From: a virus
Taxonomy: Duplodnaviria; Heunggongvirae; Uroviricota; Caudoviricetes
IMG/VR virus record: IMGVR_UViG_2617270945_000015
DNA length: 33,207 bases
Direction: 5' to 3' (one strand)
In this document: positions 15,001 through 30,000 of the stretch, in pieces
Numbering within the stretch: position 1 is the stretch's first letter
How the letters are laid out: each line of letters starts with the position of its first letter
Program-made: the position numbers

Positions 15001-18000
15001 AACCAATAATTTTCGGGAAATCGCGGAAACGTCAACCAACTATCCGGTAATTCCTAGTGAGGTGTTGTCCGCAATCCTGAAGGTTGCCAAGATTCGTGCC
15101 GATTTCGATGATTTTGACGGTGACAGGCGAGGTATCGGTGATTGTCTGGATGAGGCTGAGCAAGAGCTTATCGTTACCATTAACAAATATGCCAGTCAGT
15201 TGGCAGCAGAACCGATAGCGACTAATGACGTTCGAGAGCAAACAGCCGTTCCGCCAGTTCCGGTAACTCCGGATGGTTGGATAAGCTGTAGTGATCGAAT
15301 GCCAGAAATGGGAGAGCGACAATACTATGTGTTAGCAGCTGACTTTAAAAACAACTACCCACCAAGCATCCCCAACACTCAGGTCGGCGTATATGGCGAC
15401 TGGTTTAATGATGGCAATCCCACTTGGGATGACGGTGATGGCGAAGACCTGCATCTCAAAGAAGTAACCCACTGGATGCCGCTACCAGAACCGCCGAAGG
15501 AGGTACGCCAATGACCTAGCCTGAAGCATTTGCAATTGTAGTGGCTGCCATTTTGATCGCACTGATTGTTTTTGCGATTTGCCGCTGGGGGTAAAATAGT
15601 TCACCTGCATGGAGATTTGATGCCGGGGAATTGTGGGGGAGCATTCAAACCTCTCCCCTTCCCGGTTAAAGACTCCATTGCTTTGCGGTCAGAGAGATAC
15701 ATCAGCTTCATCAGCTTCATCAGCTTCATCAGCTTCATCAGCTTCATCAGCTTCATCAGCTTCATCAGCTTAATGAAACGCATAGATCCGCCATGCTTTT
15801 TCAGCAAATACGCTGCCATTTGCGCAACTTTTTCTTCATTAAACATAAATCGGCTCTCTGTCTCACATGAAACACTCTTTCTGACTATATGTTAATAGCT
15901 CCGGTTATTACAGGTTAATGTGTGTTTATTTCTTAATCAGCCCCGCACTTCCGTACGGGGCCATTTCTGTTAATCCACTCCCACTTTTTTGTTGTACTCG
16001 CGGTTAAACCGATCCACGGCAACCTTCATATCCCGCTCTACCGATTTCACCATCGCCGCCTGCTGCGCCAGACTGAGAGAACTGTCGGCATAAATGGCAT
16101 CGCGCTGTTTGCGCAAATCCTTCAGTCTCTTCCGGGTATCCTGCATAAGCCCGTTCATCAACAATTTTCCGTTGTTCTCGTCAATGAACGCCGTTCTTTC
16201 TGCACCGGTCAGACTCTTCAGCTCTGCGTGATACTGCGCAACCTCTGTCATCCGGTCGTACATCTTCTGCTGGTCTGCATACGGCATCACCTCACCCGAA
16301 ATTTTCCCCAGGAAGGGCACCTGCTGTTCCGGTATATCAATACCATTCAGCGATTTCACCGCCGCATCCGTGGTTTTGGAAATGAAGCGCCCTGTCCCTC
16401 CGGAGATATAGTCAATCCAGAATTTCAGCGATTCCGGTGTGATATCCACCGCGCCGGGACGATACTGGCTGCCACCTGAGAACGCATTCAGCCAGGATGC
16501 AAACGCCTTGTACGCTTCTGGCGTTGAACGTCTTCCCAGCTGGCTGTCAGGTTTTGGTGTACCAAACGGCATGTTCTCCTGGTAAATCTGCGCCCCCATG
16601 AAGTTTTCATTCATGGCAAGGTTCGCAAACGGACGCAGAATGGTCGGTGCTGCGTTTTTCAGCAATGCCCCCGACAACGTTTCCGACGTCTCGCTGCCGA
16701 TCGGGCTGAATGCTCCCAGGATACCGCCGACAACATTACCGGCAGCACGTGAAGCAGTCAGGTCGCCCGCTGCCACACCTTCAGCTGTATGACCAAGCAG
16801 GAAGAACACGTTGTACCCGTAAGGCAGAGGAATACTCCAGTACTCACCGGCCTTGCCCCCGAACATCGATTTCATGATGACGAGGTTACGCTCTTTCACA
16901 TGAGACGGTACTTTGTCGTACCAGTTACCCCCGTCATCATCCTCCCCCGCCACACTGCGGTTAAGCGAGCCAAGCAGATAACCCGCTCCCACAGCTGCAA
17001 GCACGATTTTCTGCGGTACATTGAGATTCTTCCAGCGAAGGCGCTCCAGTAACGGCCCGTCGCCATTAAGATGTCCGAGCGTTCTCACCAGGTTTGCGGT
17101 CCCCTGAATGCTGGCGTTGGCAAACATGTACAGCGAGTTCATCAGCATCCCCTGCTCACCACGACGGTTAAAGTTCACCGTCATGTTTTTGGCAAGAGAC
17201 GCCGCCTGCTGGCGTGACAAACCGGCATCACGGGCGTGTTTATAGGCAGAAAGACGCAGAGCGTTTTCAACCGCGCCGTTGGCATCCTCGACCAGGTTCA
17301 GGAACGAATGCCATGCACCGATACTCTGGCCTTTCCATCCGCCCTTCGCCAGCGACACAAGGCGATCCATTTCCTTCTGCTGGCCCTCAAGGTCACCCAT
17401 GTTAAACCAGCCGGTTTTACCTCCGTCCTCAACAAACTCTTTCCACACTTTCTGCCACTGTGCGCCTTTGCCCGTGAGGGTTTTACCCCGCAGACTTGCG
17501 TATACGGCTGACATGGCGGAACGGCTGTCTTTCACCACAGCCAGCGCGGATAAGTTATCCAGCCCTTTCAGTTTGCCGTCGCTTCTTCCCTGCTCAGCCT
17601 TCAGGTTCATCACCGCAGTCTGCACGTCACGGATGAAGTTACTGACCAGAAATTCCGGGTTATACGACGTGTTCACCGTTGCCAGGAAGCGGTTAACTTT
17701 CCCCAGCGTACGGATTACGGCGTTACTGGTTTCCGGCCCCATGTTCTTCATCGCACGCATCAGGCGCGGATCATGAAGTTTAATGTAGTAAGTTTTGCCG
17801 TCCTTTTTGGTGGTGAAGTAGCGATCCGCCATCATTGCCATCGGCACAGGGCGCTCGACAACTTCGCGAATGGTTTCACCAGTTTCCTGGTCCTTGCGCT
17901 CTGCAATCACACGCATTGTATCCGGTCTGTCATCAGTGAATACCTGCCAGTAATCCTTGTCGGGATTATCCTGTACCAGTTTCAGGAAGGCGTTACCCAC

Positions 18001-27000: not shown

Positions 27001-30000
27001 ACTTTGGTATCACCACCGCCTTTTTTTCCGCCCATTATGGCCCCCTGGATAACAAAAAACCCTGCCGGGGCAGGGTCAGAATGTGAATTGCAATTGGTTT
27101 ACACACGATAATGAATACAGTGGCAGTCAGACCGCTATCCTGAACACCATGAAGCCATCCTCATCATCCGGCATTCGCTCAAAGCCCAGACGTTTTCCCA
27201 GCCGGATAAATCCCCGTCTTGCCGTATGAAATTCAGCCCAGCGTCCGCCAGCCAGACGGGTTAATGTCTTCACCTCCGGCAGATAACGCTCAACGCTGTT
27301 ACTCCCCGTACACACGCCCAGCAACACCAAAACATAAGGGATACCATCAGCACTGAGCACAGAACGCAGCACCAGAAAGCCATCAGGTGCCTCAAAACAA
27401 AACGCCTGCTTTTTAAGGCAGGCGTCTTTAACTTCATTCATAAATTCAGGGTTGCGGGAATTTCTCACAACACGCTGCATATACCGGAGAATTTTGTCGT
27501 CCATTCTCTCACCAGAAACGGGTGCCATATCGGCTGAACCTCAGCAACCAGTTGACGGGGGCTTTCGTCCCCGTCGCGGTTTTCCTACTGCTTACACTGT
27601 AAGAACGCCGCAAACTCCGCTCCCCACAAATTCAGCCGGAACTCACACAACGAGCCGTGTAACATCCAGATGGTGAAGATTACCGTCATACAAATTGTGA
27701 CGGTGATGAGCGATTTTTGCGACATAGCGCTTGCCTCCTGAGTGGAGAGGCGCTAACCTTCTACTTGCTTAAGGTATGATGGTTAGGGCCTCGGGTTAAA
27801 CAAAATGTTTGACTCGGGGCCTTTCCACATCAGGCCTTCAGGTTCACCTTCCAGCCATCAGCCGAAAGACACCCGCGCATAATCTACGATTTTTGCCCTG
27901 CACGGGCAACAAAAAACCCGCCATCACAGCGGGTTATGACATGTTGTCGGGTATTACTCAGAATTTCAGGCCAATGCCTGCAAATAAACCATCAGTTTTC
28001 CAGTCGCCAGAGCCTGAGCTTTCATAAGTGACGTCCATAGTAACACTTTCATTGAAGTTAAATTGCGCGCCGACAGACCATGCAATAGACGTTTTTTTGG
28101 TGCTGTTACTTTCAGAAAAACTACCTACACCACCATTAAGATTGTCGTTAACTTTCAAATCATAAGTTACTTTTGCAACCGCAACACCTGCCATTGAATA
28201 CACACTGAGGTATTCATTAAACCGCCACGAAGGACCGGATAGTAGACTCCAGTAATTAGCCCTGATATCAGTTCTCGCTGAAGCTGCCGGTTTTTTTACC
28301 TCTCGTGATGGATCGGAAGGCTTAACATCAATGAATGCCTGTGCATTAGTCATGGATCGAGCCCATGCAAAAGAGGTTATAACACCGATCTCATCCGTAA
28401 TCTCATAACGATACTTAATGTTCATTCCCAAGGGACTTTTCTCTTTACCATCATGGCCCCGGACAAACGCATCGTCATATTCTCCAGGTGAATTGAAATA
28501 GTTTTCATTCACAAAATTGTTAAAGGTATCAAGGTTATGAAGACTTAAATCCTTAACAAAATTATTCAGCCCGGATAGCTGAAGGTGAGCGAATCCAAGG
28601 GATACGGTACTATCACCAGATGCAGCATGTGCCTGTGCAGTTAATCCACCTAAGCCCAGAGTTGCGCACACAAGAAATTTTGTGATACTTTTCATTTTAA
28701 GAATCTTCCTATATTAAAAACATTGTTCTCTCTGTCCTTTCCACATTTTTGATTATTTACCATCCTGCCTGGAAATAAAAAATAAAAATTTTTCTTAAAA
28801 TGATTGATAAATTTTATTGTGCTAATCATACATTGAAGTATTAATAACAAGAACTTTGTCTACATAAGGCTTTCGAATATCCCATGTTGCACCACCTGAA
28901 TAATGCTCACAGGAATATATTTTATTTCCTGTAGCGCCAGTGGATGTGGTATAAATCGGTCGGTCATAAGGAGTTCTTTTCCAGTTATAATACCCGACCA
29001 GTGCAGGCATAATTGCGCATGGATATCCAAGGTCCTTTTCAAATTTGATATCAACAGGTATTAACTTCGCGTCAAGCAGCATCATTTCGCCATGGTAAAT
29101 CATCTCACCCAACGGATTATACATGGCGATACCATACTCAGAAGGTTGAGTAACCATATTCGCAAAAGCATAAACAGTCGTAACACCAGGATTCGTTCCC
29201 CTGACAATTTGATGAAGCCTTAAGGCATGATATCCATCAATCTGTTCATGCGTGTACATGACATCGGCCTTCTTCTCTGTTCTGATAAAGAAAAAACAAC
29301 TTTTTCCTGACGGAATTGACGTTTTAAAAAAAGCCTTCTCAGTCGCCGGAATAGTTCCCTTATTGATAAGACACTGAGGCGTAAACCCCGGGCTTATCCA
29401 CAAGCTGCCATCTGGTTTCGTAATGCTTAAACCATACATACAACTCACCCCCAGAATGTATAAATATATGACCCCATCCCCTGCTCAAGATTTGACCACA
29501 TCACCGTATTGCCATTAATGGTTATCTTCGGTACTTTCCGGTCCTTAAATACATTATTCCACGGAAATAATGAACAGACTGCCTGCAATGTTTTCCCTTC
29601 TGGTTTATTCGTATACGTTTTTGATCCCGACTCCGCCGTAAACCTGTCCAGGAAAAATATGGGAGTAAGCACGCCCGTAACATTAACATTATTTCTGTTG
29701 TATATTGCAAAACCATATTCTGCCAATGTCAGCCTCCGGCTCAGCTTAACCTGCCTATGCGAACAGCCAGGCGTCCGTTCTGGTCATAAACTTCAATTTT
29801 ATCATTGCGGATCACCAGCCCCACATTCTGATTAGAGTAACGAATTGTCAGTTGCCCTTGTGACGTAACACTGAAAAGGCCTCCAATATTCAGGTTACCC
29901 TGAGAATCAACCTGAAAGTTTCCGTTTTGAATAACGGCACTCCGAATAACTGGCGAAGTGATACTTACCCCGGCTTTTACCTCATCCGCCACAACCTTCC

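Follow-up and report, generated by a model that had tools for sequence, protein, structure and literature searches.

The distal late operon of a lambdoid prophage, carried on a 33,207-nucleotide stretch of DNA (IMG/VR record IMGVR_UViG_2617270945_000015, Caudoviricetes; "the window" always means this whole stretch, along which positions are counted), contains three intrinsic terminators, T1, T2 and T3, oriented with the late genes. They are likely to be functional for ordinary RNA polymerase and to insulate the lysogen, and would be read through by Q-modified polymerase after induction. A fourth hairpin, T4, located after the last gene of the operon, is not a terminator.

Escherichia coli chromosomal DNA extends from position 1 to about 11,000 of the window (rspAB, ynfA to ynfF); the remainder is prophage, with its late genes on the minus strand. 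The prophage is stx-less, of the short-tailed Sp5 / 933W / Phi24B type, and is integrated in ynfG. The segment in question is 93–95% identical to short-tailed Stx2 phages and matches, gene for gene, ECs1232–ECs1242 of prophage Sp5 of O157 Sakai and vb_24B_39–48 of Phi24B. Strain cM8a has a near-identical prophage in which tail fibre, N4-gp56-type capsid, portal, terminase and lysis genes and a Q-family gene are found further upstream on this strand. The Q-family gene, annotated as "antiterminator Q family protein", runs in the direction of the late genes. It falls beyond the window, with the start of the giant gene about 27 kb, and the stop codon about 35 kb, downstream of it. The annotation of the cM8a prophage includes no stx gene, and a DUF6645 gene is found just downstream of Q.

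Terminators T1, T2 and T3

T1 (27908–27935, minus strand) follows lom: its hairpin (27915–27935, 8–9 bp) starts 23 nt past the lom stop codon (27958) and is followed by U6-G-UU, ending at 27908; the promoter that comes next has its -35 element overlapping this U-tract. T2 (27051–27077, minus strand) lies in the gap between the genes for proteins of 133 and 218 amino acids (aa). It starts 50 nt past the stop codon of the 133-aa gene, and is composed of an 8 bp hairpin (27058–27077; folding z = -3.4), followed by U6-G-UU to 27051. Directly 3' of it the 218-aa gene has its ribosome-binding site, AGGGGG, and then its ATG (27035): 4 nt separate the end of the U-tract from the Shine-Dalgarno sequence, and 16 nt separate the end of T2 from the ATG. 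T3 (24336–24361, minus strand) lies in the gap that separates the 421-aa gene from the giant gene, after a spacer of 31 nt. A 7 bp hairpin (24342–24361) is followed by U7, to 24336, and only 2 nt separate this run from the GGAG (24330–24333) of the giant gene, whose ATG is at 24322–24324.

The three sites were evaluated by a d'Aubenton-Carafa-type score, d: the values, 21.6 for T1, 30.1 for T2 and 24.1 for T3, exceed every other minus-strand score across the 33 kb of the window. When the 17.3-kb late strand was shuffled 40 times with its dinucleotides preserved, matches with d >= 20 had a mean of 0.025 and never numbered three or more; three are observed. All three are located in short intergenic gaps, and each combines a short-loop hairpin with an immediate run of U, kept in all relatives. 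Judged by their sequence, T1–T3 are real Rho-independent terminators, at which transcription would be expected to end. The earlier note on this DNA had placed terminators after lom (27908–27933), after the 133-aa gene (27054–27076) and in the gap before the giant gene (24336–24360), close to its ribosome-binding site, and all three placements were borne out. No published description of T1–T3 was met in the literature found.

The strongest terminator score of the window, d = 43, belongs to a hairpin on the strand opposite to the late genes (32943–32962, plus strand), followed by U9; it adjoins an oppositely oriented YkgJ-like pseudogene set between late genes.

Conservation of the terminators

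Relatives of the segment were recovered from IMG/VR by two queries, the 421-aa protein (48 loci) and the C-terminus of the giant protein (54 loci). Among phage records searched by tblastn, relatives were either at least 75% identical or, in Vibrio phages, about 31% identical, with none in between; the sole return from species-representative genomes searched with the 421-aa protein was one contaminant-like contig of 552 bp.

T1–T3 are kept in synteny in about 46 IMG/VR loci, in Phi24B and in Sp5, where T1 is found at Sakai positions 1292411–1292433, T2 at 1293271–1293292 and T3 at 1295987–1296011. Stem and U-tract of T1 are invariant in 46 relatives, while the 25-nt spacer between the lom stop codon and the hairpin is heavily diverged. 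T2, compared in 44 relatives, features an invariant stem, a loop with C/T variation and a U-tract 6–7 long. T3 is found in three stem versions and 7 variants, with pairing in 100% of the cells compared: two of the 7 pairs show double changes (G-C to A-U and A-U to G-C), and one further change turns U-G into C-G. Its U-tract is 6–9 long, and GGAG and ATG are unchanged across the variants. These compensatory changes go back to few independent events, though their direction is the right one.

A few relatives are rearranged. A 765-bp deletion in locus L002 removes T2, L029 has a 2-kb deletion and L035 a 2.4-kb insertion, while L015, L016 and L019 contain a 1.6-kb insertion (1513–3118 in L015), located exactly past the 3' fold-back element of the hok-like mRNA described below. 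The L015 insertion has a high AT content and codes for a YadA-like trimeric autotransporter adhesin of 408 aa. None of these loci gives evidence of modules having been exchanged at T2 or T3.

The hairpin after the giant gene

T4 (15939–15962, minus strand) is a GC-rich hairpin of 10 bp, with a GGAA (GNRA) loop, located 7 nt past the stop codon of the giant gene; its predicted folding energy is -20.5 kcal/mol (z = -6.6). A hairpin with a U-tract had been claimed here by the earlier note (15940–15961). The hairpin is real, but a U-tract is absent on both strands: CUGAUUAAGAAAU follows on the late strand and CAUUUCUGUU on the opposite one, and T4 is not scored as a terminator on either strand. 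Among 51 related loci, representing 19 sequence variants, the hairpin is kept in all variants and a U-tract is present in none (0/19). T4 is also found in Sp5, at Sakai positions 1304414–1304433, and in Phi24B. T4 is not a terminator. Immediately past it the homology between phages ends, marking a mosaic junction. Most likely T4 is a stable 3' hairpin closing the conserved late arm, which would act as an exonuclease barrier, protecting 3' ends, and coincide with a recombination junction.

Terminators along the whole operon

In the near-identical prophage three more co-oriented terminators are found upstream, after the portal gene, after the major capsid gene and after the next gene; one of them repeats the arrangement of U-tract, ribosome-binding site and ATG. 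The chain of terminators spans the whole operon, and is not peculiar to this segment.

A wider comparison is provided by the distant Vibrio phage D339 (L108, OZ195995). The block at 15970–32631 (minus strand), with genes of 541, 422, 133, 218, 148, 83, 421 and 2784 aa, corresponds in gene order and by homology to eight D339 genes. The 133-aa gene, previously taken for a separate module, belongs with the operon formed by the last five genes to one ancient, collinear structural block, which is split by T2. The low-GC genes (93-aa, 208-aa and lom), together with T1 and the hok-like locus, are an insertion relative to the D339 gene order. On the late strand of D339 a scan of 25 kb returned only two terminators, one with d = 10, in the gap between the ORF79-like gene and the giant gene, and one with d = 34 and a U-tract, right after the giant gene. 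The position of T3 holds a terminator, then, in one very distant relative, and T4 of the E. coli phages is a U-less version of a site that in D339 holds a true terminator.

Promoters

Promoters were searched by position weight matrix (PWM). The best score is 5.0 in the gap upstream of the 218-aa gene, for a match overlapping T2, and 2.0 in the gap upstream of the giant gene: none is convincing, and there is no room for a promoter before either gene, because the U-tracts nearly touch the Shine-Dalgarno sequences. Within the 421-aa gene there is a strong match, TTGAGC-16-TAAATT (-10 ending at 24820), which most relatives do not conserve and which was rejected as due to chance. The scan agrees with the earlier statement that no convincing sigma70 promoter is visible for the five-gene operon.

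The best PWM score in the window (10.4, 99.99th percentile) is found elsewhere, at TTGCCC-17-TAGATT (27881–27909, minus strand), a promoter-like site for the hok-like mRNA. It abuts T1, within whose U-tract it begins, and both hexamers are kept in relatives, with a -10 of either TAGATT or TAAATT. The earlier map of the modules had missed this strong, conserved promoter and the locus it precedes, between T1 and the 133-aa gene.

Function of the terminators

In the lysogen, T1 would end the transcript of the constitutive low-GC lom block, and the promoter abutting it would drive the hok-like toxin mRNA. T2 would halt transcription proceeding beyond the 3' end of this mRNA, perhaps with a partial contribution of a hairpin at 27403–27424, and T3 would be the last barrier, directly before the ribosome-binding site of the giant tail gene. 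The 218-, 148-, 83- and 421-aa genes and the giant gene, as they lack a promoter of their own, would be silent. After induction, polymerase modified by Q at pR', upstream of the window and about 27 kb before the start of the giant gene, would ignore T1–T3 along with at least three terminators upstream, and the essential tail proteins would be made by read-through.

Published results on near-identical phages fit this scheme. In Sp5, tails do not form without ORF79 (ECs1241, the homologue of the 421-aa gene) and ORF80 (ECs1242, 2793 aa), both of them essential, whereas ORF72–78 are dispensable (PMC5155283); the two essential genes must therefore be transcribed in lytic growth, across T1–T3. In Phi24B, lom is constitutively expressed and "uncoupled" from the regulatory circuit of the phage, and the giant open reading frame (ORF), CM7, is induction-linked, to the surprise of the authors, since it lies downstream of lom (PMC3342100); RNA-seq agrees as far as lom is concerned (PMC4651098). 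The terminators offer a simple reason, at the sequence level, for the very combination that Riley et al. (2012) found surprising. The general proposal of the earlier note, with distal genes expressed by Q-antiterminated read-through and shielded in the lysogen, is consistent with these reports, with the absence of promoters and with the Q-family gene upstream; what did not stand are the part assigned to T4 and the map of the modules.

Some points weigh against insulation with Q-dependent read-through. Termination and read-through at this element are predictions from sequence, and pR', the qut site and Q lie outside the window, being known only from the near-identical genome. The lom promoter consists of a set of matches in the AT-rich DNA upstream of the gene, all of only moderate PWM score (6–7). 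ARNold reported no terminator in the spacer between lom and vb_24B_43 of Phi24B (PMC4426718), although the sequence of this spacer nonetheless contains T1. Comparable hairpins after the capsid and portal genes are found where insulation of the lysogen is not an obvious purpose, and T2 splits a gene block which is contiguous in the distant relative, its rationale as an insulator being conjectural.

A partly overlapping possibility is that the hairpins are mainly punctuation of the mRNA, protecting the 3' ends of a processed, Q-dependent late transcript and setting the level of its segments (for example, more of the small upstream proteins than of the giant one), with insulation of the lysogen as an incidental effect. 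Some role of this sort is favoured by the arrangement of hairpin, U-tract and ribosome-binding site seen also at the three upstream sites (behind the portal gene, the major capsid gene and the one that follows), and by a terminator in the gap between the ORF79-like and giant genes even in D339; a T4 that is very stable and has no U-tract fits it as well. T1 and T2, however, bracket a constitutive promoter and have full U-tracts, as fits the real termination of units expressed in the lysogen, and the difference between a constitutive lom and an induction-linked giant gene needs a transcriptional barrier, not stability elements alone. Punctuation as the main role is possible, with a chance that we put at about half that of the insulating terminators; the two are compatible for T1–T3, and for T4 it is the preferred explanation. 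Alternatively, the distal genes might be driven, after induction, by non-consensus or activator-dependent promoters of their own, with no need for read-through. PWM scans overlook weak or activated promoters, and in D339 a promoter-like site, TTCACC-17-TATGAT, follows the terminator preceding the giant gene. In the E. coli phages, in contrast, only 2 nt (T3) and 4 nt (T2) are left between U-tract and Shine-Dalgarno sequence, the intergenic PWM scores reach no more than the two low values given above, and the sole strong internal match is unconserved, so that we regard such promoters as improbable.

The terminators could also be the 3' ends of Hfq-binding small RNAs (sRNAs), derived from the 3' untranslated regions of lom, the 133-aa gene and the 421-aa gene, in the manner of the Pas and EcOnc sRNAs. 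Examples of sRNAs ending in intrinsic terminators do exist within structural operons of prophages (bioRxiv 10.64898/2026.05.13.724894), and in O157 Sakai the ECs1236–ECs1237 spacer stands out among the intergenic regions crosslinked to Hfq (PMC4104026 supplement). The only Hfq peak listed at these sites, however, is EcOnc53, which is weaker than EcOnc36, runs antisense over T1 and was not detected by northern blot; no Rfam family reaches threshold, and the spacers before T2 and T3 are just 50 and 31 nt long. This origin, too, has little probability. Least probable, and hardly credible to us, is that the hairpins are chance inverted repeats or neutral leftovers of module acquisition, with no present function: T4 does sit exactly at a mosaic junction, and T1 closes the inserted low-GC block, but three such sites were found in 0/40 shuffles, the T1 hairpin is invariant next to a diverged spacer, and T3 combines compensatory changes with a U-tract that is always kept.

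A hok-like locus behind T1

The predicted hok-like mRNA (27515–27874, minus strand) contains a Hok/Gef ORF of 46 aa (27585–27725) and a 3' fold-back element at about 27522–27540. The ORF matches Pfam HOK_GEF (PF01848) with 33.2 bits, against a cut-off of 22, and is annotated by RefSeq (PGAP) as "Hok/Gef family protein" in strain cM8a. The 5' and 3' ends of the mRNA are paired in the minimum-free-energy fold (z = -5.7). Its leader matches the Rfam sok model with 35 bits (E 5.6e-6), below the gathering score of 59; the match begins 7 nt downstream of the promoter. At gathering thresholds, no Rfam family is found in the region of T1–T3 and the hok-like locus, and no mok-like overlapping reading frame was seen at the locus.

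A Sok-like antisense RNA is predicted on the opposite strand (27731–27826, plus strand): the promoter, TTGCCT-17-TAACCT (27731–27759; PWM 8.3, 99.94th percentile), lies over the start region of the toxin, and the RNA would extend from about 27766 to 27826, with a terminal hairpin at 27787–27821. This promoter is the one described in Phi24B as p24B_1, from which an 80-nt transcript was reported (PMC4426718). The equivalent of 24B_1, mapped via HM208303, falls at 27797–27818; the 20-nt, "microRNA-size" 24B_1 corresponds to the loop and the 3' arm of the terminal hairpin. In Hfq crosslinking data from O157 Sakai, the ECs1236–ECs1237 spacer is flagged on both strands (PMC4104026 supplement). The Sakai and Phi24B records consulted carry no annotation of the locus, and neither the two 24B_1 papers nor a 2025 review mention hok/sok. 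Identity with hokW-sokW was rejected: published primers (PMC8621323) place hokW (MKQQKAM...) at ECs1245, at the right end of Sp5, and the data on sokW loss are inapplicable here.

Inside the 133-aa coding sequence, some 90 nt beyond the point where the hok-like mRNA is predicted to end, lies a terminator-like hairpin (27403–27424, minus strand; d = 15, followed by UUUUGUUUUG). It is mostly conserved, with the stem broken in two variants, and may be a partial terminator of the hok-like transcript.

The 24B_1 fragment was seen only after induction. We tentatively suggest, as a conjecture which is rather unlikely to hold, that 24B_1 and its 80-nt precursor could be the Sok-type antitoxin RNA of an undescribed hok-like locus, insulated by T1 in the lysogen. 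After induction, Q-modified polymerase reading through T1 would collide head-on with the antisense promoter, and abundant sense RNA would pair with the antitoxin RNA, leading both to its cleavage, with the 24B_1 fragment as a product, and to a release of the Hok-like toxin that is timed to a late stage of lytic growth. If true, this would establish a testable link between antitermination and toxin release, although a speculative one. A hok-like origin would also change the reading of the much-discussed 24B_1 "bacterial microRNA" and of its deletion phenotypes; the locus, a by-product of this analysis, may matter more than the terminators.

Genes of the late arm

The accessory block upstream of T1 includes two small membrane/outer-membrane genes of 208 and 93 aa (28822–29726, minus strand), matching PHROG 425 ("moron ... 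membrane associated protein") and PHROG 557, and ends with lom (27958–28695, minus strand), which encodes an Ail/Lom outer-membrane protein of 245 aa (Pfam Ail_Lom, 3.9e-30; PHROG 108). GC content across these three genes (28000–29600) is 0.36–0.44, as compared to 0.50–0.57 in the flanks. Morons are defined as having their own promoter and terminator, allowing expression from repressed prophages (PMC3594210). The lom block features a deviant composition, is absent from between the homologous genes of the collinear relative D339, and has a terminator of its own, T1.

The gene annotated with 133 aa (27127–27528, minus strand; PHROG 610) is the homologue of a 131-aa protein of D339. Its true start is probably the ATG at 27504, giving 125 aa, because PHROG 610 aligns from residue 9 and a variant locus (L015) begins the gene at the equivalent of the same residue. 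A hydrophobic, out-of-frame ORF of 37 codons, preceded by GAGG and starting at the ATG at 27383, past the intragenic hairpin, was dropped as a candidate: the annotated frame is backed by PHROG 610 and by the Vibrio phage homologue.

The four co-oriented genes of 218, 148, 83 and 421 aa (24393–27035, minus strand) match PHROGs 611, 596, 594 and 601 and are homologues of Sp5 ECs1238–1241. The giant gene (15970–24324, minus strand), about 8.4 kb long, encodes a polyvalent protein of 2784 aa with Pfam LPD5, LPD1, MuF_C and LPD38 domains, homologous to Sp5 ORF80 (ECs1242). It is 40% identical to the 3066-aa protein of D339 over 947 aa, corresponding to the C-terminal 940 or so. Hfq crosslinking reads in ECs1242 are mostly antisense, and a strong antisense peak, EcOnc36, falls inside the Sp5 giant gene (Sakai 1301433–1301515, which would correspond, by an approximate and unaligned transfer, to window positions 18830–18915, plus strand).

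Comparison with known systems

The architecture is that of an ordinary lambdoid late operon, combining Q antitermination with morons, and the kind of element is fully known. The late operon of lambda (Q, pR'-tR') similarly is a single, long, co-oriented operon with a Q-family gene upstream, embedded intrinsic terminators and distal morphogenetic genes devoid of promoters, and in lambda, too, lom is in the late arm and is expressed from the prophage. Unlike lambda, the prophage described here has a short-tailed morphogenesis module of the Sp5 / 933W type, with an N4-gp56-like capsid protein, and its essential tail genes are downstream of lom, whereas in lambda lom comes after the tail genes; read-through of T1–T3 by the action of Q is, for this prophage, only inferred.

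Lambdoid morons (HK97 gene 15; lambda lom and bor) are units of promoter, gene and terminator inserted in late operons. The 93-aa / 208-aa / lom block shares with them its low GC content, its absence from the collinear distant relative, a terminator (T1) at its end and a Phi24B counterpart that is constitutive in lysogens. It differs in that only moderate candidates are available for its promoter; T2 and T3, moreover, are inside the conserved structural block and are not moron boundaries.

With the hok/sok systems (hok/sok of plasmid R1; hokW-sokW of Sp5) the locus behind T1 has in common a Hok/Gef ORF whose leader, about 150 nt long, is structured; a predicted antisense promoter, placed over the region where translation starts, with a predicted antisense RNA some 60 nt in length that ends in a hairpin; and predicted pairing between the mRNA 5' and 3' ends. 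It is a different locus from hokW (ECs1245), however, has no mok-like frame and scores below the Rfam threshold, and its toxicity is a prediction.

The closest systems are the late regions of Sp5 (VT2-Sakai), 933W and Phi24B, which share gene-for-gene synteny over ECs1232–ECs1242, with 80–95% DNA identity; Sp5 and Phi24B carry all of T1–T4. The prophage described here, by contrast, is without stx, has a DUF6645 gene downstream of Q, as judged from the near-identical strain, and is integrated in ynfG.

Other features of the window

Beyond T4, a perfect tandem repeat, made of eight copies of a 9-bp unit (CATCAGCTT on the plus strand), is located at 15700–15771, inside an ORF on the minus strand (15601–15846), where it encodes a (KLM)n run. 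The ORF is short and apparently truncated; its equivalent in a near-identical genome is annotated as a Panacea-domain protein, and no Pfam match was found here. Near the left end of the prophage, among degraded antA/AntB antirepressor genes, the Rfam family sRNA-Xcc1 (RF02221) is matched at 11952–12037 (plus strand), with 73 bits, above its gathering score.

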